DNA of 64,000 nucleotides from a virus (taxonomy: Duplodnaviria > Caudoviricetes). A program made the position numbers and the translations under genes. Location: IMG/VR virus record IMGVR_UViG_3300032038_000001, positions 96,001-160,000 of that record. The stretch is one strand, 5' to 3'. The notes under the pieces are model-generated. The model was given only the letters and a program-made list of their open reading frames with translations, did no database searches and was not told where the DNA came from. This document shows, in pieces, positions 4,060 through 49,600 of this stretch (position 1 is its first letter; each line of letters starts with the position of its first letter).

Positions 4060-4700
4060 TGATGAATATTATGAATAATACTATTAATGAAATATTTAAT
4101 GTAATGAATTTTGTGGTTAATGATATTGCTTCAGAAACGATTTCAACTGTTTCTGAAGCGTGTGAGTTAATATCAGCCATATCTAAGTTTATGATAGGTA
4201 AAAAAGATGACTCTGCTAAGGCTGAAATGTCTAGTATTATTTCGTCTATAGATGATCTTAATTTACTAGGATTACATCTTTTTAAAATTGAGTTATCACT
4301 AAGCTATGCTAATGAACAGATAGCTTTGATATCTGGTTCATCAGATAGTGCATGGAAAATAATGTATCTGATATCAGAACTTTTTCAAAGTTTAAATTCA
4401 GCAGGAAACAAAGCTAATGATGTCGATGTTAATAAGAATAATCAATCTGATGAAAAAACAGAATTAAAGAATAAAATTAATGAACTTAAAGAACTTGCGG
4501 AGTTTTTCGATATTGCTGTTATATCAGCACAACAGCTTAACCGTGTAGGTGCAAGTGTTGTAGATACTACTGCGATAGAAATGAGAACTGAAATTATCAC
4601 ACTTGTTCAGTCTTACTGTAATATGTACGGCTATAATGTACAGTTCATTACATTAAATGAAGACGGAAGAATTGTAACAATAGATAACGTTACAAATTAA
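4059..4700 (+). CDS. hypothetical protein carrying a 40-aa DnaB-helicase segment
   Basis: 4446-4565 encodes SDEKTELKNKINELKELAEFFDIAVISAQQLNRVGASVVD, 36/40 identical to the helicase at 53242-53361. Confidence 0.75.
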   Translation: MMNIMNNTINEIFNVMNFVVNDIASETISTVSEACELISAISKFMIGKKDDSAKAEMSSIISSIDDLNLLGLHLFKIELSLSYANEQIALISGSSDSAWKIMYLISELFQSLNSAGNKANDVDVNKNNQSDEKTELKNKINELKELAEFFDIAVISAQQLNRVGASVVDTTAIEMRTEIITLVQSYCNMYGYNVQFITLNEDGRIVTIDNVTN

Positions 4701-6709: not shown

Positions 6710-7294
6710 ATGATGAAAAAACTTTTACAAAAAATATTTGGTGGTGATATTTTAATTATTAATGCGTTTATATCATCTCTAATGTTTGCAGTAGTGTTAC
6801 CGTATAATCAAAAAGCCATCTTTTCAGTATTACCTGAAAAATACTATTCAATGTCAGTAATACTTGAGTGTATTGGGGTGGTTGTGTATTCTAAATTATG
6901 GAATACTTATCGAGAAAAATTATATAAAAGATTTGTTTTGTTTTCGGTATTCGATTCATTACATTTCATTGTATCACTTCTCTTATATTTGCTAACAAAA
7001 AGCATAGTAGTTTACTATATAATAGACACCATACTTTTTACTATATTTTCCAGAAATGTGATTTCTGGATGCAATACATTGTTAGCAAAGAGATATAGTG
7101 ACCCTGAAAAGCGGAATTGTTATGATAACAATATAGCATCAGTCTCTGGTGTTGCTACAATATTAGGTAGTAGCTTGTCAATAATGGTTTCGCATATAGG
7201 ATTTATATTCGTTGTTATAATAATTACAATATTGAATTTGATTGACAATATCTTATTCATAGTTGTAAAAATAAAACAAGACAAACATGAATAA
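6710..7294 (+). CDS. multi-pass membrane protein (half-MFS-like)
   Basis: about 5-6 hydrophobic segments; RBS aggagg; TATATTAT upstream. Confidence 0.7.
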   Translation: MMKKLLQKIFGGDILIINAFISSLMFAVVLPYNQKAIFSVLPEKYYSMSVILECIGVVVYSKLWNTYREKLYKRFVLFSVFDSLHFIVSLLLYLLTKSIVVYYIIDTILFTIFSRNVISGCNTLLAKRYSDPEKRNCYDNNIASVSGVATILGSSLSIMVSHIGFIFVVIIITILNLIDNILFIVVKIKQDKHE

Positions 7295-7331
7295 AGATGA
7301 AAGAATATAGGTATGCGCCTATATTCTTTTT

Positions 7332-7552
7332 TTATTATAAAACCGTAAACTTAATAATTTCATATATATAATATTTTAGTGTAATAAGATAAATGATATC
7401 TTAATCTAACTTCATAGCGAAGGCGTCAGATTAAGATATTATATAGATTATTACATAAACAGCAGTAAGTGGTTTCTCGGAACTTTTATACGTTCCCTCT
7501 GTTTACCACAGTCAATAAAACAGAGTATAAGTACAATAAGGAGGTACTTATT
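7332..7552 (+). repeat. conserved structured leader element, copy 1
   Basis: differs from the reverse complement of 37565-37783 by one substitution and a 2-nt loop indel; homologous to 35613-35819 and 36341-36553. Confidence 0.95.
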
Positions 7553-7885
7553 ATGACATTAACAGAAAAAATGGAATTAGCAGAGTTGATTCGTGGTATC
7601 GTTCGTGAAGAGCTGCAGAGAGTGCTTGCGGAAAATAATAAAACTGTAGACAGCGGCACTACTACAACTACCATCGGCAGCACTGAAAATGCAAAGGCTT
7701 ATTTGAAGAAAATAAGCCCGATGATGAGTGAGTATGTGAGCCGATATACCCTCTATGATATCAGCAAAGAAATGAAGTCAGTACTTACAGCTGACGAAAT
7801 AAAGTACGTCATTATCCACCTGGACTCAAATAACTTGTGTAGCAAGAAAAACAGCAGAGACCTAAGTGAGATGCTGTTTAAGTAA
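7553..7885 (+). CDS. orphan cargo protein (110 aa, MTLTEKMELAEL...)
   Basis: AAGGAGG before ATG 7553; the ORF-track extension to 7469 lies inside the repeat; terminator at 7889-7931. Confidence 0.8.
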   Translation: MTLTEKMELAELIRGIVREELQRVLAENNKTVDSGTTTTTIGSTENAKAYLKKISPMMSEYVSRYTLYDISKEMKSVLTADEIKYVIIHLDSNNLCSKKNSRDLSEMLFK

Positions 7886-7930
7886 CAATAAGTGCAGTGT
7901 GAACAATTGTTCACACTGCACTTTATTTTT

Positions 7931-8131
7931 TTATTCAATTACAAAATATTTTCTTAAATAATCTTCCTGTGATAAATATTTTTTTTCATTTAGTTTACCA
8001 TGTTTTTTATTATAGGCTTCTTCTCTTCTAGTTTCGGCATCAGCACGTATTTTATCAATATCATGTTTTCGTTTATTCTCTCTTTTACGAGATATAAAAT
8101 TAAACTGTCTTCTACTAGAATATCTAAGCAT
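7931..8131 (-). CDS. small basic hypothetical protein
   Basis: RBS aaggag; directly downstream of the RNAP gene. Confidence 0.6.
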   Translation of the reverse strand: MLRYSSRRQFNFISRKRENKRKHDIDKIRADAETRREEAYNKKHGKLNEKKYLSQEDYLRKYFVIE

Positions 8132-11076: not shown

Positions 11077-12435
11077 ATGAGGGTAATGATAGATATGTTT
11101 AATAATGACTTATTTACTGAAGCATATTCAGGTAAAACTAAGACTCTTTTGAAAATAGAAAAACTTTTGGATGATATGTGTAATAGAATGAAAGTAGACC
11201 CGGATGCTGACTATACCAATTCGTTTGAAAATAAGCAAATCTGTAATCTTTTTAAAGAACAATTTGGATTTAAAAATGTATATATAATTTGGAAAAGAAC
11301 TCCTAGAATGGCTCCCAATGCATTTACATTAATGAGCGTTAATGTATTATGGAGAGATAAAGGAAAATTCTATGATAAGAACAAAAAAAATTTTTATGAT
11401 AAACAACATAAACATACAGTATATATTGAAGTATCACAATCAATGGCTAGAGATATAGACTTGAGTGGTGCTGAATATTTAGCTATAATTTTACATGAAA
11501 TTGGACATAATTTTGATACAAGCCCTTATATGGTAATTTCTGTAATATTTACTTGGATTAAATTATTGGCTGAGGTTATAACCAAAACTGTTATAATAGA
11601 TCCTGAAACACAAGAGGAAATAGTCATGAAGGGAATCAATCCTCAAGCAATTTTATCAATGGTAGTTAATACTAATCCAGGTAAAACCGTTTATGGATCA
11701 ATTCAACAAGCATTTGAATACATCAAGGATAAATTTAAACCTATAAAAAGATTTATGTCATTTTTAAGGATGATAACCAGTGAATTATATAAAGCTATAG
11801 TAAAAGTTACTACTCCTATTTTAATAGTTCCTCAGACTATAATGTATGGTATATTAAGTCCTGTATATCATTTAATGACTGTTCCGACACGTAAAACAGA
11901 AATATATGCTGATTCATTTGCATTATATTATGGCTATAGTGTTGAACTTTCCAGGGCACTTGATAAACTTACTGACGGACTAATGATACGTAATAGTAAA
12001 GGAAAAGTTGTTGATCTCACTGGTATTAACAGGGTACTTACAGATATTGCCATGACACAATATTATTTAACACTGGTTCTTATTGGTGCAGACCACGGGT
12101 CTAATGAAACACGTTTATTAACAAATATGAAAATTATTGAAAAAGAATTAAACGAAAATAAATATCCACCCGAAGTAGAAAAAGATCTGAGAAATCAGAT
12201 AAATGGATTAAAAGAAGTATATAGTGTATTTAAATCTGGAGGGGAACAATCATTAACTCTTTTAGGTGGTGCACGTGAAATAGTTGAATCAATATTTGGG
12301 GGAAGATCTGATTATATAGCTAAGTTTTTCCCATCATATATTGCAACTAAAAATGATGAACCTTTAAATTTAGAAGAATCTACTAATACAGAAATCGATG
12401 ATATAATTGATTCAATTATATCAAATGATGAGTAA
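11077..12435 (+). CDS. HExxH zinc-peptidase-like probable virion protein
   Basis: AIILHEIGHNF and EIYADSFA; N-terminal LFTE|A putative maturation site. Confidence 0.7.
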   Translation: MRVMIDMFNNDLFTEAYSGKTKTLLKIEKLLDDMCNRMKVDPDADYTNSFENKQICNLFKEQFGFKNVYIIWKRTPRMAPNAFTLMSVNVLWRDKGKFYDKNKKNFYDKQHKHTVYIEVSQSMARDIDLSGAEYLAIILHEIGHNFDTSPYMVISVIFTWIKLLAEVITKTVIIDPETQEEIVMKGINPQAILSMVVNTNPGKTVYGSIQQAFEYIKDKFKPIKRFMSFLRMITSELYKAIVKVTTPILIVPQTIMYGILSPVYHLMTVPTRKTEIYADSFALYYGYSVELSRALDKLTDGLMIRNSKGKVVDLTGINRVLTDIAMTQYYLTLVLIGADHGSNETRLLTNMKIIEKELNENKYPPEVEKDLRNQINGLKEVYSVFKSGGEQSLTLLGGAREIVESIFGGRSDYIAKFFPSYIATKNDEPLNLEESTNTEIDDIIDSIISNDE

Positions 12436-12481: not shown

Positions 12482-13081
12482 TCATGTATTAGAAGAAGGA
12501 TTATGTGGCATAGCTCTCATCTCAACCATTAGATTAGCGATAAATGAGTCACCATTTTCTTGTAGGTATTTTTGATATCTATCCTCAAGTGCTTGTAAGA
12601 CATATACTTCAATATATCCTTTTGCTTGACTATCATAATATTGCAGGGTGATAAAAGATCGTATGCTTTCTTTATCGGATTCTATCAATAAATTCATGTT
12701 AGAATGGACTACATCTATTTTTGTATTTATTTGCTCTTGTTTTTCTTCGTATTTTGTCATCCTCGTTATTATTGCTTGATCTTTTTCTTCACTTAATTCT
12801 TTAAATTCACTCATCTTTGTATTAATATCGGTAATAGTACTATTAAAATTAGCAGACATATCTCTTACACTTTGAGCAAGTTCTAACATTTCATCTTTAA
12901 ATTCAGTATTATCGCGACTTTCATTTGCCTTTTGTAATATTTCAGCATCATGTTCAGCTATTTGTTTTTTTAATGTTTTATAAGCCTTAAGTATAAAACC
13001 ACCACAAACAACAATAACCGATAGAGCTATACCGAGCCCTGGAGCGACTGAATTCATAAAATCAATAAATGTTCCCTCCAT
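12482..13081 (-). CDS. N-terminally anchored coiled-coil protein, holin-like family of Firmicutes phages
   Basis: one TM helix, coiled coil, C-terminal KGYI..LEDRYQKY..NGDSFI..M. Confidence 0.55.
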   Translation of the reverse strand: MEGTFIDFMNSVAPGLGIALSVIVVCGGFILKAYKTLKKQIAEHDAEILQKANESRDNTEFKDEMLELAQSVRDMSANFNSTITDINTKMSEFKELSEEKDQAIITRMTKYEEKQEQINTKIDVVHSNMNLLIESDKESIRSFITLQYYDSQAKGYIEVYVLQALEDRYQKYLQENGDSFIANLMVEMRAMPHNPSSNT

Positions 13082-13266
13082 AATTCATATACCCTCCTTA
13101 GGTAGAAAAATGTATTATTATTGAATTGTTTTTATATGACTACAAGCTACTCAATAATTATAAATATATACAACATATAAATAAGGTTTTTTTATTATGC
13201 ACTAATTTTTCGTCCTTCCTGTGAAAATAATGTGATAGCAAAATAATTTGCTATCACATTATTTTT

Positions 13267-15897
13267 TTACTTCCTATTAATATCGAGATAATTGGCTAAA
13301 TAATACTTATCTTCTCGGTTTTTATTAAACCCAAGATCAATTATATCAACTGGATATGATGAGAACATGTCGTTATGAGTTATTAGAAAACTTTGTTCAG
13401 AACCAATTCTATCTATTTGATTTTCCAGTATTCTTATAAATTTTTCTCTGTTCTTTATATCTAATGGTCCATCAATTTCATCTAATAGCATTATATTATA
13501 TTTACTTAATGTTTGTGATGCTAAACCGAATGATAGTGCTATTGATAAGAAACTCAATTCTCCTTGTGATGCATATTTAACATCGTTTATTAACTCTCCT
13601 CTATTATAAAAGGGAATTGAAAACTCGGTAGGAGTAATTTTAAAATCGTCCAGATATATTTGACCATTAAAGGCTATATCCAATAATTCATTTGTTATTT
13701 CAACAGTATTACCAAGATAGCTTTTTATATAGTATAATGGCATTCCTTTTTTCGATGACAATGCCTCTTTGGTTAATGTCATTTCATCAAATTTTATATT
13801 GTATAAATCTAATTCTTTTTTAATAGAATCATATTGATCAATATTTGATTGTAATTTTTGTATTTCAGATGATAAGGTATCGATACTAAATTTAACTTTA
13901 TCAATATCACGTTCACATTCTCTAGCATTATCTCTGTTTTTTATATAAGAATTATAGTCATTAAAAAGTTTTTCATAAAGAGCTTCTAACTCATCATGTT
14001 TTTCGAAAGTTTCTTTCAAATCATTATATGTCTCAATCGTATTTGTATCATCTTTGATTCTCTCAGATAATTTTGATATTATCTTTTTAAGATCTATAAT
14101 CTGTTCTTGATATTCATTTATTTGATTACTAATGGATTCCATTTGTTCTGATATATATTTAAAGTTAGATGTCTTTTCATATCTTGATATGGATTTTTCA
14201 AGTTCTACCATTTTACTAGTTAACGATACATAATTATCATATTCTGTTACGGTTGAGAGAACATCATTCATTGCAGTTTCATTAAATATCCGAGTGCATG
14301 CTGCGATTGAATTGTAGATATTTACTGTTTTAAAATCATTTTGTATACTGGGTGGTAATCTCTCTATTATAGATTTATAATCTGCAAATGAAAGTAATAC
14401 ATCTCTTATATTTTGATATGCATATTCCATATCTTTATAAAAAGATAAATCTTTTTTAGACTCATGTTCAACTTCACTATTCTCGAGTAAATTCTTTACT
14501 TGAATCCATAACTGTTTTGCTTCACACTTATCATTATTACAGTTTTCAAATATTTTAGTATCATTAACTGTACTCATTCTTCTGGAGACAGTTTTTAAAA
14601 ACAACATCTGACTATCTTCATCAGAGTCTAAACCCATAATATGAGTATTTATATATTGTATCACATTACGATTATCTTGTAATAATGAAATAATCTTCGA
14701 CACAACTTTTTTTCCAAATTCATAAGTTTTATCAAGTTTATTTTGTGTATTTTTTATAAATACATAAAATTTATCAAATTCATCTTTGGTGAAATCATAG
14801 TTATATTCACCTAATAAAATTTCTATTGACGCTATTTTTTCTGTTAATTTTCTACGTTCCTCGATTAGAGATTGAAGTTCTTTGTCATTATTCTCCTCTT
14901 TTTGATATTGTACTTCAAGACTACGGTGTTGTTCCTGAAGTTGATTAAGTGTAGATAAATGATTTTGAATTAATATATTAGAGGAATCGATTTGTGCTTG
15001 ATTGCGTATATTTTGCTTTTCCAATTCAATGATTTTAGATGCATAAAAAGAAGCATCTGTTGATTCTAAATCATTAGCATTTTCGAGAATTTTATTCATT
15101 TTATCTAATTTCTTTAATGTACTAGATAACCTATCTTTTAGTGTTGCAGTATCTTCTATTTTTTCTATTTCATGATTATATATTGATAAAAGACCTGATA
15201 ATTTACCAAACTTTTCTTGCTCTTCTTCAACTCGTGCTTTCAAAATAACCAAACGTTGTTTTGCCTCTTTTTTATCTTGTATACCTAATTTATTCATTTT
15301 ATCAACCAAATGTGATATCATCGCTTTTACTTGAATTAGGTCATTATTAATTTTTTTATAATATGAGAGAAAAATTCCTATTTCATCAAGAAGTTTACTC
15401 ATGAAAGTTTTACGTTCAGTTTCTGTTAGGTTTATCATCGAGGTAACGTTACTACCTATTCTTATAAGTTTAAGATGATCTGGTTCGATACCTAACTCTA
15501 TTCTTACAAGTTCTTTAAATGATGTAACATTTCCATTCTCATTTAATTCATTACCATTTTTAGATATATAAGATTTAACGGAATGATTTTTATTAGTTTC
15601 TTTATGAGCTTTATATATATGCTTAATTATATAATAATCATTATTATAAGAGATATGGATTTCTTTATATCCATCTAGACCTGAAAGTATAAGATTTAAA
15701 CTATCACGTACGTCTAAATTTCCTACACCTGCAAATGGATGGAGTAGACTTAATATGGTAGTCTTACCCGAACCATTTGGTCCAATAAGTAAACAAACTT
15801 TATTCATTGTATTACTAAAATCAATACTGAATTCATTACAGTCCATTGCATTCTTTATAGCTGCAAAGTTTTTAAATATAATTTTTTCAATTTTCAT
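13267..15897 (-). CDS. SbcC/Rad50-like SMC ATPase
   Basis: GPNGSGKT, long coiled coil, ASQGE signature, MLLDEIDGPLD, LITH; start set at MKIEK after RBS gaaagga. Confidence 0.9.
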   Translation of the reverse strand: MKIEKIIFKNFAAIKNAMDCNEFSIDFSNTMNKVCLLIGPNGSGKTTILSLLHPFAGVGNLDVRDSLNLILSGLDGYKEIHISYNNDYYIIKHIYKAHKETNKNHSVKSYISKNGNELNENGNVTSFKELVRIELGIEPDHLKLIRIGSNVTSMINLTETERKTFMSKLLDEIGIFLSYYKKINNDLIQVKAMISHLVDKMNKLGIQDKKEAKQRLVILKARVEEEQEKFGKLSGLLSIYNHEIEKIEDTATLKDRLSSTLKKLDKMNKILENANDLESTDASFYASKIIELEKQNIRNQAQIDSSNILIQNHLSTLNQLQEQHRSLEVQYQKEENNDKELQSLIEERRKLTEKIASIEILLGEYNYDFTKDEFDKFYVFIKNTQNKLDKTYEFGKKVVSKIISLLQDNRNVIQYINTHIMGLDSDEDSQMLFLKTVSRRMSTVNDTKIFENCNNDKCEAKQLWIQVKNLLENSEVEHESKKDLSFYKDMEYAYQNIRDVLLSFADYKSIIERLPPSIQNDFKTVNIYNSIAACTRIFNETAMNDVLSTVTEYDNYVSLTSKMVELEKSISRYEKTSNFKYISEQMESISNQINEYQEQIIDLKKIISKLSERIKDDTNTIETYNDLKETFEKHDELEALYEKLFNDYNSYIKNRDNARECERDIDKVKFSIDTLSSEIQKLQSNIDQYDSIKKELDLYNIKFDEMTLTKEALSSKKGMPLYYIKSYLGNTVEITNELLDIAFNGQIYLDDFKITPTEFSIPFYNRGELINDVKYASQGELSFLSIALSFGLASQTLSKYNIMLLDEIDGPLDIKNREKFIRILENQIDRIGSEQSFLITHNDMFSSYPVDIIDLGFNKNREDKYYLANYLDINRK

Positions 15898-34676: not shown

Positions 34677-35612
34677 TTATTGAGGCTGCCTTTTTGCCAT
34701 GCAAGCCTCAATGTACTCACATGTTGTATTCACATTATTTTCCAAGTGAGCACATACTGAAGGCCACTGCCACTCTCTTATAACACCATCTTCGCAACAT
34801 TTGAACATTACATCGTTACGTATCATTTTATTATTTATATGTCCATCAACGATATATTTATTCTCTATGTTAGTATTAAATATATCATCAATTACTGAAT
34901 CAATCGTGTCAATGACATTCTCATAATGCTCTCTATTGATTTTCATTATCTTACTACGAATGTAGCGTTCTTCGTATCCCGTAACTCCGAAATCATCCTG
35001 TGAGAACTTCAGATATTTATCTACAAGTTCGTTCTCTATTCTTTCCCAGTTTATCTTCTTCGTCGTCATCATTATTTGATTATATAGCAGGCCTATACAA
35101 TCATCAATGCGTGCCGCCCACACCTCGCGGGATTTATACGGGCACTCATTTATGGGCGGATAGATGAGAACTGCTTCCTCAGATGAGAGTTCGTCTGCTT
35201 CTGCTTCTGTTTCGTCAACTGTTTCCTCAACTGTTTCTGTTTCGTCAACTGCTTCCTCAACTGCTTCCTGTTCTTCCTCAGATGAGAGTTCAGCGGCTTC
35301 TGCTTCGTCGACGTCGTTTTCCACCATTATCTCATCATCGTCTGCTTCGATTTCAGCATCAAGAGCATCGTCAGCATCATCCGAGAGTTCAGCTGCTTCT
35401 GCTTTGTCACCCGAGTCCTGCTCTTCCTCAGCTGCTTCTGCTTCCGCTTCGTCGACGTCGTTTTCCACCATTATCTCATCATCGTCTCCACCGAACTCAG
35501 CAGCATCAAAGGCCTGCTTAGCAAGTTTCCGCTGTCTCAGGATTGCAAAAATGCTTATTCCTGAAAGTCCTACTACACCAGCACCGATAGCGATTTTAGT
35601 TGTCTTTTTCAT
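34677..35612 (-). CDS. membrane-anchored, highly acidic repeat protein (cargo of leader copy 2)
   Basis: N-terminal TM helix; DDDEIMVENDVDEAEA x2, AELSSEE, VDETE repeats. Confidence 0.85.
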   Translation of the reverse strand: MKKTTKIAIGAGVVGLSGISIFAILRQRKLAKQAFDAAEFGGDDDEIMVENDVDEAEAEAAEEEQDSGDKAEAAELSDDADDALDAEIEADDDEIMVENDVDEAEAAELSSEEEQEAVEEAVDETETVEETVDETEAEADELSSEEAVLIYPPINECPYKSREVWAARIDDCIGLLYNQIMMTTKKINWERIENELVDKYLKFSQDDFGVTGYEERYIRSKIMKINREHYENVIDTIDSVIDDIFNTNIENKYIVDGHINNKMIRNDVMFKCCEDGVIREWQWPSVCAHLENNVNTTCEYIEACMAKRQPQ

Positions 35613-36004: not shown

Positions 36005-36340
36005 TCAATCATTGGAAGGGGATGGATGGTGCCATCGTTCATCGATCCACCCCCATGTTATGAATGCCTTTCCATTGCATTCACCGTACCCTCTCATTAT
36101 GGCGTCTATGAATATACGCCCTTCCCTGGGAACAAACCCTGAAAAATCAGGGTTTAATTCATGGATGCCGAATTCGAACAGAACCCCTCTCTCAGACATA
36201 GCTGAGGTTATGTCTGAGAGAAGGTCTTCGGTGAGAAGCCCTCTAAACAATTCTAGCTCCATGTTTTGTTGAAAAAGCTGAGGACTCATTCTCCCAGCCT
36301 TTTCAACAAATTCATCTATCTGATTAATGATATTTTTCAT
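36005..36340 (-). CDS. orphan cargo protein (leader copy 3)
   Basis: AGGAGG RBS; terminator at ~35963-35997. Confidence 0.8.
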   Translation of the reverse strand: MKNIINQIDEFVEKAGRMSPQLFQQNMELELFRGLLTEDLLSDITSAMSERGVLFEFGIHELNPDFSGFVPREGRIFIDAIMRGYGECNGKAFITWGWIDERWHHPSPSND

Positions 36341-36553
36341 ATGATTACCTCCTAGTAATCTTACTCTGTTTTATTGACTGTGGTAAACAGAGGGAACATA
36401 CAAAGTTCCGAGAAACCACTTAACTGTTTTTATGTAATAATCTATATAACATCTTAACTCGATACCTTCGTTATGAAGTTGAGGTAAGTTATTATATATC
36501 TTATTACACATAAATTATATATATATGAAAATATTCAGTTTACTGTTTTATAA
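36341..36553 (-). repeat. conserved structured leader element, copy 3
   Basis: homologous to 7332-7552 with compensatory stem changes. Confidence 0.92.
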
Positions 36554-37423: not shown

Positions 37424-37564
37424 TTAGATTAAAGCATTAACAATTGCTACAACTATTCCAAGAATGAGTATGACTGTCAACGCGACACCGATATCGTGAT
37501 CACGCTTCAATCTCTTGTAACCCTTGAATTTTCTTTCGCCGTTTTCTTTTCTGTTATTTTTCAT
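37424..37564 (-). CDS. 46-aa single-TM orphan protein (cargo of leader copy 4)
   Basis: MKNNRKENGERKFKGYKRLKRDHDIGVALTVILILGIVVAIVNALI after AAGGAGG. Confidence 0.75.
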   Translation of the reverse strand: MKNNRKENGERKFKGYKRLKRDHDIGVALTVILILGIVVAIVNALI

Positions 37565-37783
37565 AATAAGTACCTCCTTATTGTACTTATACTCTGTTTT
37601 ATTGACTGTGGTAAACAGAGGGAACATAAAAGTTCCGAGAAACCACTTACTGCTGTTTATGTAATAATCTATATAATATCTTAATCTGACGCCTTCGCTA
37701 TGAAGTTAGATTAAGATATCATTTATCTTATTACACTGAAATATTATATATATGAAATTATTAAGTTTACGGTTTTATAATAA
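37565..37783 (-). repeat. conserved structured leader element, copy 4
   Basis: near-identical inverted copy of 7332-7552. Confidence 0.95.
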
Positions 37784-46699: not shown

Positions 46700-49600
46700 T
46701 TATTCGTTAACTATTTCCGTTTCAGGCTGATCGTTCTCTGTTTTACCTATAGTACAGAAGTAATGAAGATCAATCAGCTGACCTTTCGTGATAGTGAAGT
46801 AGTCATTTAACATACCACTATCACGGTCTACAATCATACGTTCGATAGGATTAAATTTCCTAAACATATAAACGAATGATTTATCCATAATACCGATAAT
46901 ATTCAGGATATCTCCATCAAAATCAGCATTAAGCCCGGGCAAGCAATCGGCATTCAGACCGTATTCTTTTTTAATTTATTGTTTATAAAATCTGAATGCT
47001 AATTAAATTGTATTTGAATTATTATATTGCTTTTAGTTAGTTTACTTGACTATATGTCTCTTTATAATAATTGAAAACTTTAATAAAATCTTCATTATTT
47101 TCTTTTCGTTCATTAAATTCATTGATAAATTCATTTAAAGTTAACTCTGGTATATTATCATCATATTTATCAATATAATTTTGATAAAATTTATATGCCA
47201 AATCATTTTCTATATTTGGTATTGAGAATATCCATGCAAGTATCGTATTAAGTCTCCAGTTTTCACTATCCACTTTATCCTGAAATTTATTAGTAAATAT
47301 AAGATTGGTATCAATAGCATGATGGATATTTTCATATATATCACACCATTCTAGATTTATAGCATAATTACATTCAGGATTACCATTTATATGATTAACA
47401 CAATTATATCTTTTCGGATTTTTATTTTTTACAAACATAAATGCAACTAATCTATGAATTGAAAACTCATCGAACCCATTATCGGTATTTAAAGATACCG
47501 ATAAATGACTTTGATTGCATCGATTGATATTGTGTGATTTATGAATGTTTGTATAGAAGCCCTTTGTGTTATTCCATATTCTACCAAAATTACTAATACG
47601 ATAGTCATCAATAAAATTAGTGCCTGGTATTTCTAGTTTCTTCCATTTTTCTTTACCTAAAATTGGAATATATAAAGTCGTCCACTCACGTTCTTGTTGG
47701 TGAACTTTGTTATTTACATCCCAATTATCTCCCCAATATAAGTTACTTTTATCACAATTAGTAGGGTTACCATCACGGAAAATAACTATATCTTTTCCTT
47801 CAGGTTTAGGTATAAAATGAAAAGCCACTAATCTACTCACAGAAGCATGCATTACATCAGATGAACTTTTATCGTAGTATAAGTTATATCTTAAGTAATC
47901 CTTATTTCTAGGGTCTTTAAATGGTTTAATGAACGAATCGGTATTACTATTGTAAAGTCTACCATCTTCACAAATATAATACTCGTAGTATAACTTTGTA
48001 CCTATATCCACTTTCTCCCATTCTTTGGTTTCATGATGGATATTAATTAAAGCTGTTATTCCTTTATCAATAGAAAGGTTGGATAGTTTACAGTTGTAAA
48101 TATTCCCATCAATATGATGGATATACATACCGGTTTTATAATCTGGGAAAAACATTAACACCATTAATTCATCATGATAAAAGAATTTTCGTTTGATTTT
48201 GCCATTATCAGCTATTATATTGAAAAAGATTGCAGGGCATTCATTCGGTCTTCTTTTATCATTATATGGATTTATATGATTTCCTGTAGATTTATTATAA
48301 ACCGTACCATCTTCATATATTTCATATTCATAAAGAAAATCTATATCTGGTAGTTTAATTATTTTATGCTTAATTTGATTTTCCCTCCTTAAGTTATTAT
48401 TAGCAATATAATAAATTCAAATACAATATTCTAGACTATATCTTCAATGTATATTCTTTAATAACAAATATACATAGCTGTCCGTTTCGTTTTAATAGAT
48501 TTACTTATAGCTAATCTCACTATAATACTAACCCTTAATAGGCACTACTCTACTCACTTCTTCACCCAAGTATTTCTCTTAAGCTATGCTTTCGATAGTC
48601 GTTGAACTCATATCTCCTTTATAAATTCTTTATAAAGGGATACTTTGCTGCGTCGATTGATTCAAATAAATACCTTTTTACTATACCTTTGGAGTTACCC
48701 ATTGCCATTATCATTATTACTAAGATAATTTAGTAGTATCTATTTATAGAATTCGTCCCCGCAATTAGAACAGTTTAATGTCGACCTCGCCCGTATGGTC
48801 AATCGACAGTGGAACTGATAAACAGTAATCATTCTTATCATGTTTTATCTTTCTTATTTTCATAAGCAACATGCTATAAAAATTCCATTAACTATATAAT
48901 TCCCATTATATAACTGACTATATCATCATCTTTATATACTATTAACATATATAAAGAGCTCCCCATTTCGCTTTAATAGATTTACTTATAGCTAATCTCA
49001 CTATAATACTAACCTTGTTACAGGCGCTACTCTACTCACTTCTTTTACCAATGTATTTCTACATAGGCTATGCTTTCGATAGTCGATGAACGTTCTTATA
49101 CTAAATGATTACTTATTTCATAAATAGGGATTTCACCTATTGAAAGTGTTTTCCATATTTCGTTATCCTCATTCAATTCTATTAACTGATAATATTGCTT
49201 TAAAAATTTGGATAAAGGTTTGCGTTTTTTAGGCATATTTTTTTTCACCTCTTTTATTTTTTTAATCATTTAGTATATGCTTCGCTGCGGATTGTCTCTA
49301 TTCTCAATCTTTTTACTATACCTAAGGAGTTACCCTTCGCCCTCAAAAATATTTTGAGTTAGTAATTGAGACTTAACGAGATATCCCCGCAATTAAAGGA
49401 GTTTAACGACCTCAAATTTTTTTAGCAGCTCTAAGGTCGGATTTCTGTTTATCAGAAGTTGAGCATCGTTATGCTCTACCATAAACATCATGATATCATA
49501 AACTTTTTCATCAAACTTAAAAGCATTCTGCCATATCATTGCAGCTTTGCCCATTGAGATACCATCGAGTTTCATGAGATAATAAATTATTTTGGACTTA

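Follow-up and report, generated by a model that had tools for sequence, protein, structure and literature searches.

The window analyzed here, 64,000 nt of DNA, comprises bases 96001-160000 of a 250,395-bp virus record with 31% G+C (G000). The phage encodes RNA polymerase subunits of the multisubunit type, and the N-terminal half of one of them is 34-37% identical to the beta' subunit of Bacillus phage AR9/PBS1, Staphylococcus phage S6, and Listeria phage LPJP1; because of this likeness, we regard the phage as an uncultured relative of the AR9-like jumbo phages. A 29-nt pseudoknot core occurs four times in the window, compared with zero expected occurrences, and the four pseudoknot copies start at 7469 (+), 35691 (-), 36419 (-), and 37646 (-). 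Each copy precedes a different small gene that is directly closed by an intrinsic terminator. The features of the cassette that carries the first copy, and the positions of the other three copies, are as follows.

7360-7379, + strand: core of an AR9-type early (virion RNA polymerase) promoter, tcatatatataat, followed by 6 nt and G(+1), assigned by its fit to the consensus
7379-7456, + strand: leader domain 1, a long and variable 5'-terminal hairpin in the MFE fold
7469-7473, + strand: 5' strand of stem S1, GUGGU, the reverse complement of accac at 7505-7509
7474, + strand: loop-1 spacer U7474, a single base between the S1 5' strand and the triplex strand
7475-7478, + strand: UCUC, the proposed Hoogsteen strand of loop 1, from covariation in register
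7479-7496, + strand: hairpin P1a at the turn of loop 1, consisting of GGAAC, an 8-nt loop, and GUUCC (ggaac at 7479-7483 pairs with gttcc at 7492-7496)
7497-7504, + strand: 5' strand of stem S2, CUCUGUUU (ctctgttt), the reverse complement of aaacagag at 7518-7525
7505-7509, + strand: 3' strand of S1, ACCAC, the partner of 7469-7473
7510-7517, + strand: loop 3, AGUCAAUA, with GUCA and the last A invariant in 26/26 copies
7518-7525, + strand: purine-rich 3' strand of S2, AAACAGAG, the partner of 7497-7504, followed by a conserved UA at 7526-7527
7527-7551, + strand: predicted SD hairpin, with AAGGAG in the loop and the final SD G in the stem
7553-7885, + strand: 110-aa orphan gene without a Pfam or PHROG match
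7890-7932, + strand: intrinsic terminator closing the cassette, a GC-rich inverted repeat and T run right after the stop codon
35636-35691, - strand: pseudoknot copy 2 (108.9 bits), upstream of a 311-aa gene at 34677-35612
36364-36419, - strand: pseudoknot copy 3 (111.4 bits), upstream of a 111-aa gene at 36005-36340
37592-37646, - strand: pseudoknot copy 4 (108.4 bits), upstream of a gene for a 46-aa membrane peptide at 37424-37564

The AT-rich promoter element at 7360-7372, the 6 nt that follow it, and G7379 are conserved upstream of the copies and match the AR9 early promoter consensus, AAATATATATTAT-(6N)-G+1 (PMC5312081), which the promoter of the copy at genome position 67339 matches nearly letter for letter. 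Transcription probably starts at G7379, at the foot of the domain-1 hairpin. The resulting leader of ~215 nt is strongly structured (z = -5.8), and the copies align as far as the start codon and not beyond it. A GTG at 7469 could be read as the start of an in-frame ORF to 7885; this start was ruled out because indels in other copies break the frame, and the real start of the 110-aa gene is the ATG at 7553, behind the SD. An SD hairpin is predicted in 25 of the 26 copies collected below, on stems that differ in sequence and covary, with dG of -4 to -8.6 kcal/mol. From the end of S2, the distance is 7-14 nt to the SD and 21-27 nt to the AUG (27 nt in copy 1).

No family matches were found among the downstream genes that were scanned. 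Some cassette proteins are paralogous to one another (34677-35612 (-) in the window, genome positions 11816-12373 and 12789-13322, and L102:233-772); they share the N-terminal membrane anchor MKK..KI.IG.GV.GLSG.SIF.IL.QRKLAKQ together with variable acidic repeat regions, and direct repeats at 35233-35505 lie within the gene of the acidic-repeat paralogue of the window. The most diverged knot of G000 (L121) precedes a 311-aa ORF at genome positions 67433-68368, outside the window. Further direct repeats occupy 48459-49353 (75 nt at 48459 and 48940; 64 nt at 48655 and 49290).

In L105, and likewise in the copy at genome position 67339, other hairpins take the place of domain 1, and this replacement of a whole domain indicates that domain 1 is a separable module. 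The hairpin that stands in its place is unrelated in both copies (L105:~230-356 and L121:~1400-1500). Where domain 1 is present, its apex, AACUUCAUAGCGAAGG, is highly conserved and its lower stem covaries, and most copies have the pentamer UACAU at the 3' foot of the domain (7452-7456 in the window). UACAU is the cleavage motif of the MazF toxins of Bacillus and Staphylococcus.

Because the block is invariant among the four window copies, which by themselves contain no covariation, and because a 5-bp match of a flank to a 13-nt loop could well arise by chance, diverged copies were sought elsewhere. Relatives were reached via the RNA polymerase subunit, with degenerate DNA patterns, and by covariance-model (CM) searches of whole records, S1 being kept out of both search models on purpose. 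Eight near-identical copies were found in G000, and the covariance model added two diverged ones, for a total of 10. Altogether, 26 distinct copies were obtained from five related virus records (G000 with its 10 copies included) and four metagenome contigs; the sources beyond G000 were the records G001 and G005 (both from sample 3300001487), G002, and G006 and four AUXO metagenome contigs. G002 (203 kb) has an RNA polymerase subunit 77% identical to that of G000, and the G006 proteins other than this subunit are 60-82% identical in most matches. The 26 distinct sequences make up the final alignment (A8), and the proof of the fold comes from the divergent copies outside the window.

The relatives also bear on the mobility of the cassettes. 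Those of G006 sit where the syntenic G000 region at 173-187 kb has none, and cassettes therefore move. A G002 cassette (L088:1400-1560 (-)) has a related promoter and a domain-1-like hairpin and no pseudoknot before the SD, so leaders of this kind occur both with and without the knot. Near-identical early-like promoters, TATAAACACTAAGGTTTATATATAAT, with short unstructured leaders are present at genome positions 15274 (-) and 74713 (+). At L267:4073-4175 (+), a weak model match (28.7 bits) has a knot-like start, AAAGAGUUUUUC, and ends in an SD hairpin and AUG; S2 and loop 3 are missing from it, and it looks like a decayed or recombined copy.

A preliminary description of this DNA had proposed that gtggt pairs with accac, ctctgttt with aaacagag, and ggaac with gttcc, the first two helices crossing with zero linker and the third forming a hairpin inserted in loop 1. 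All of these pairings are present in copy 1, in which the 3' arm of P1a, the 5' strand of S2, and the 3' strand of S1 abut without a linker in an H-type topology; the order of the strands is interleaved (S1 5', S2 5', S1 3', and S2 3'). Across the copies, P1a has 4-5 bp, and S1 comprises 4-5 bp and S2 7-8 bp on a shared continuous strand, with a linker of 0-2 nt, and loop 3 is A-rich and 8-10 nt long. As for whether this fold has been under selection, standard pairing is found in 95.5% of cells over S1, P1a, and S2 in A8, and double-sided changes occur in 13 of the 18 pairs: 3/5 in S1, 5/5 in P1a, and 5/8 in S2. The crossing of the two helices is thus backed by covariation in both of them, and the inserted hairpin is borne out by changes on both sides of all five of its pairs among the 26 copies. 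None of 500 shuffles matched the real alignment on any pairing measure, and when the partners were slid by 1-3 columns as a control, pairing fell to 43-53%.

The covariation of S1 is independent of the search because S1 was absent from the search models. Its pairs in A8 (alignment columns) have the following compositions.

15-59: GC in 13 copies, AU in 12, GU in 1
16-58: UA in 14, GC in 11, CG in 1
17-57: GC in 23, AU in 3
18-56: GC in 26
19-55 (junction pair): UA in 18, UG in 1, broken in 7

The seven copies with a broken junction pair also lose the neighboring S2 pair, and their linker is 2 nt; the closing pair of P1a is likewise frequently broken. Nine G.U cells in A8 would read A.C on the opposite strand, and the selected molecule is therefore the sense-strand RNA, in agreement with the polarity first assigned to it.

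We next consider loop 1, the pyrimidines of which had been suggested to engage the agag purine strand in major-groove triples. Four of these pyrimidines change in step with the four distal pairs of S2 according to the U·A-U/C+·G-C rule, running parallel to the purine strand. In this parallel register, all 104 of the 104 cells from the 26 copies are isosteric (U·A-U, C·G-C, or C·G-U), compared with a mean of 74.9/104 when loop 1 was shuffled among sequences (104 was reached in 0 of 20000 trials) and with at most 60/104 in any other parallel register. Two other arrangements were tried and rejected: antiparallel Watson-Crick pairing between loop 1 and the 3' strand of S2 accounts for 73/104 cells at best, and a junction-proximal UUU/AAA triplex register accounts for only 54/104. 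The proposed triples of copy 1 are U7475·A7522-U7500, C7476·G7523-C7499, U7477·A7524-U7498, and C7478·G7525-C7497. Among the copies, loop 1 and S2 change together in three types, and the triple covariation amounts to about three independent switches of sequence type.

Type I (14 sequences): loop 1 UCUC, S2 5' strand CUCU (UUCU in 2), S2 3' strand AGAG
Type II (7 sequences): loop 1 UUUC, S2 5' strand CUUU, S2 3' strand AAAG
Type III (5 sequences): loop 1 CUUU, S2 5' strand UUUC, S2 3' strand GAAA

The mirror-repeat layout around P1a is a signature of an intramolecular triplex, and the orientation of loop 1 and the base rules agree with those given in a review on triple-helical RNA (PMC7583470). 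U7474 alone must bridge the four junction-proximal S2 pairs for loop 1 to enter the triplex register. The single register that fits every cell thus supports the suggested triples, and by these predicted loop-1 triples the element falls in the class of major-groove, pyrimidine-motif triplex pseudoknots. Overall, the stretch at 7469-7525 is almost certainly a sense-strand H-type RNA pseudoknot whose loop 1 forms triples with S2 and which is part of a portable early-gene cassette.

The pseudoknot is the most conserved part of the leader, as had been noted from the window copies: among the eight near-identical copies in G000, 8 of its 58 columns vary, compared with 32 of 81 in domain 1; the linker has 8 variable columns out of 12, and the SD hairpin region has 21 out of 27. 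Conservation extends to unpaired bases. The G, U, C, and A of loop 3, its last A (A68), and U20 (A8 columns) are invariant in 26/26 copies, the U in A8 column 19 is invariant or nearly so, and the UA after S2 is kept in 25/26 copies. The same motif recurs in P1a: carried on covarying stems of different sequence, the loop of this hairpin reads xGUCAA in the lineages of type III and G002 and matches the GUCA(A) of loop 3 (L267:2134-2236, 4486-4588, and 7225-7326; L162:5627-5727; L121:1501-1604; L107; and L109); in type I copies, GUCAA is missing from the P1a loop. The preliminary description had also drawn attention to an upstream taaacag that could compete for ctgttta and offer an alternative fold. 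This heptamer (7456-7462) is indeed present in copies 1 and 4 and is not kept in the other copies, so the sequence itself was confirmed and a conserved alternative fold was not.

Searches beyond these relatives covered RNA family, phage, and prokaryote collections. A 131-nt query gave no Rfam family match at the gathering threshold or at E up to 10. The Rfam family cow-rumen-4 (RF02948) was considered and rejected: copy 1 scored 19.8 bits against a gathering threshold of 48.5, the best score genome-wide (31.2 bits) lay at a different place, and the divergent copies gave no match. Exact and near-exact scans of viral contigs with a 29-mer and an 18-mer returned nothing and a 15-mer returned chance matches only, and 50,697 phage records queried with the leader by blastn returned AT-rich promoter-like pieces only. 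CM searches of AR9, Staphylococcus phage S6, Listeria phage LPJP1, Bacillus phage BpSp, the jumbo Fusobacterium phage JD-Fnp1, and the relatives G003 and G004 yielded only SD/A-rich noise. With each of 185,579 prokaryote species represented by one genome, the pattern scan gave 97 matches; none of the 80 listed loci that were tested with the model was convincing, and the three best of those 80 (26-33 bits) correspond to sequence that codes for a lipoprotein signal peptide in Flavobacterium. The pseudoknot is thus an RNA family without a catalogue entry, within a known structural kind. The early 5' UTRs of AR9 are mostly 20-50 nt long and unstructured, and other early-like G000 promoters also have short leaders; therefore, the knot is not a general need of early expression. 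It is an add-on of one uncultured clade, in a subset of the early genes of that clade.

The reading of its function that we favor, tentatively and with slightly less than even confidence, is that the knot serves as a ligand-independent shield and positioning module beside the ribosome-binding site (RBS). The knot would provide a compact and mechanically tough fold, built from AU-rich sequence without a ligand, that guards the message upstream of the RBS from 5'-to-3' decay of the RNase J1 type and from cleavage of a single-stranded AU-rich leader; this shielding step would act once the variable 5' hairpin is lost or processed. By fixing the distance of the SD hairpin, the knot would also permit efficient 30S loading on early messages. 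In line with such a role, domain 1 is replaceable and the knot is not, and the knot contains neither an SD nor an anti-SD and has no conserved alternative fold. Further, a folded, pseudoknotted viral RNA (a flaviviral xrRNA) halts purified RNase J1 in vitro (PMC5760640). A protein-free block to RNase J1 by the triplex knot would be the first natural counterpart of the xrRNAs in the bacterial world, an outcome that we consider somewhat unlikely, though more probable than the sensor reading discussed below. The shield reading is weakened by three observations: the invariant unpaired GUCA of loop 3 and its copy in P1a in half of the lineages would also suit a protein or ligand site, the half-buried SD in its hairpin looks more like regulation than plain enhancement, and the early messages of AR9 do well with short unstructured leaders.

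The first two of these observations belong equally to the main alternative, itself somewhat unlikely, in which a phage or host RNA-binding protein or endoribonuclease would read the knot (GUCA and UA) as an operator and switch the early messages together, at the level of their translation or their stability. The invariant unpaired bases (loop-3 GUCA, A68, and U20), the fixed distance to the RBS, and the partial sequestration of the SD are what such an operator might require, the second xGUCAA that type III and G002 copies carry in P1a would suit a two-site binder, and an element common to about ten genes resembles a regulon. Parallels exist in T4, in which the gene 32 protein acts on the pseudoknot of its own mRNA and RegB acts on early messages. 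However, no protein emerged as a candidate, the P1a loop of type I copies has no GUCAA, and invariant loop bases are equally expected from tertiary contacts in a triplex knot. Both the roadblock and the protein-switch readings, which the preliminary description had included in its list of functions, stay plausible. The same list contained a ligand-binding switch, for which the architecture is that of the triplex-pseudoknot aptamers SAM-II, SAM-V, preQ1-II/III, and guanidine-III, in which the triple helix reads the ligand (PMC7583470, PMC6061858). A riboswitch-like sensor could be a triplex aptamer that binds a small molecule or second messenger, or could respond to pH or Mg2+ via the C+ triples, and would tune the translation of the early cassettes; the four junction-adjacent S2 pairs, with a free major groove beside the invariant U20, and the conserved loop bases could form its site. 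Nonetheless, such a sensor is very improbable. The knot includes neither the SD nor the AUG, there is no anti-SD inside it, and no mutually exclusive fold is conserved, so a classical riboswitch is unlikely; with the SD outside it, the knot lacks an expression platform. No Rfam aptamer matched even at E up to 10, the pattern and model check of one genome each of the 185,579 prokaryote species gave nothing convincing, and the genes controlled are unrelated phage orphans that form no metabolic pathway. That the signal is a host metabolite, a second messenger, or a defense-derived nucleotide that sets the translation of ~10 early genes is an idea to which we likewise attach little weight.

Type III antitoxins are also pseudoknots with base triples, and a phage has been observed to escape ToxIN through a pseudo-ToxI RNA (PMC5086642, PMC3475682). 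The knot, made early and from about ten transcripts, might accordingly be thought of as a decoy or anti-defense mimic, in which the leader copies would soak up a host defense protein such as a ToxN/CptN/AbiQ-like RNase. In type III antitoxins, repeats of 34-45 nt stand in tandem ahead of a terminator and the toxin gene (PMC5086642), whereas the knot occurs in dispersed single copies, each joined to an RBS, and a decoy would leave the fixed SD spacing unexplained; we consider this reading very improbable, and the earlier suggestion of an antitoxin-like RNA in the type III sense is not sustained, the copies having neither the tandem repeats nor the adjoining toxin gene. The chance that the element is a self-cleaving ribozyme, or that it has no function and owes its conservation to recent cassette copying, is slighter still. 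Loop 3 does contain GUC-A, a hammerhead-like cleavage triplet, but the hammerhead core motifs are absent and no match to a ribozyme family was found. Eight near-identical copies could stem from recent duplication or gene conversion, but recent copying explains neither the compensatory changes in 13 pairs and 3 triples among lineages that differ by 18-40% across the compared proteins nor the flanks that diverge several-fold faster than the knot; given the covariation, the case for no function is refuted. The shield and positioning role stays our preferred, if provisional, account of the knot.

Solved or well-supported natural RNA triple helices are few. The review of such structures lists telomerase RNA, a few riboswitches, and ENE-type stability elements, and the word "bacteriophage" is absent from it (PMC7583470). 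To these the knot adds a family not yet catalogued, in which three-way covariation supports each of four canonical triples and which has a defined site, the early messages of AR9-like jumbo phages, which are transcripts of the virion RNA polymerase. The knot marks the mobile early-gene cassettes of one uncultured phage clade, and as a compact, portable module of about 57 nt it is directly testable for its influence on mRNA life and translation in Gram-positive systems. If it does block RNase J1 or bind a regulator, it would offer a new tool and would add a new layer to the control of jumbo-phage genes.

Among known systems, the SAM-II, SAM-V, preQ1-II/III, and guanidine-III riboswitches are the closest in architecture: they too are H-type pseudoknots of the 5' UTR near the RBS, with a parallel pyrimidine loop 1 in the major groove of S2 and canonical U·A-U triples. 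The knot has no sequence or CM similarity to them, carries a hairpin at the turn of loop 1, and has four canonical triples including C+·G-C, whereas the riboswitches have two U·A-U triples and ligand-mediated ones. In SAM-II, SAM-V, and preQ1-II, the SD is part of a helix and the genes belong to the pathway of the ligand; in contrast, the SD of the knot starts 7-14 nt past S2, and the ~10 knot copies per genome precede unrelated phage orphans. The ENE of PAN/MALAT1 and the flaviviral xrRNAs are triple helices or knotted folds that resist exonucleases. However, the ENE clamps a 3' A-tail against 3'-5' decay and the flaviviral xrRNA forms a ring around the 5' end on a three-way junction, features that are absent from the knot, which also has no match to an Rfam xrRNA. 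The leader of T4 gene 32 contains an H-type pseudoknot upstream of the RBS that nucleates the binding of the regulatory protein and serves a single autoregulated gene; it has no sequence relation to the knot, and no triplex is described for it. The type III antitoxins ToxI and CptI resemble the knot in being small pseudoknots, some with base triples, from phage-host conflict, and differ in being tandem repeats that are processed by the adjacent toxin. Cow-rumen-4 has a hairpin and then a second hairpin that shows AUAAGGAGG in its loop, and when copy 1 is aligned to its CM, S1 and the SD hairpin fall on the two hairpins, but the family model contains neither a pseudoknot nor a triplex. At the level of the cassette, the nearest likeness is to the PeSL (promoter-early stem-loop) cassettes of the T4-type phages RB49/phi1 (PMC2839356). 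PeSLs have no long structured leader or pseudoknot and belong to T4-type coliphages with sigma70-like promoters; nevertheless, in both systems a repeated early promoter and a terminator bracket small orphan genes at variable places in related genomes, and the PeSL layout, as do the knot cassettes, suggests modular shuffling.
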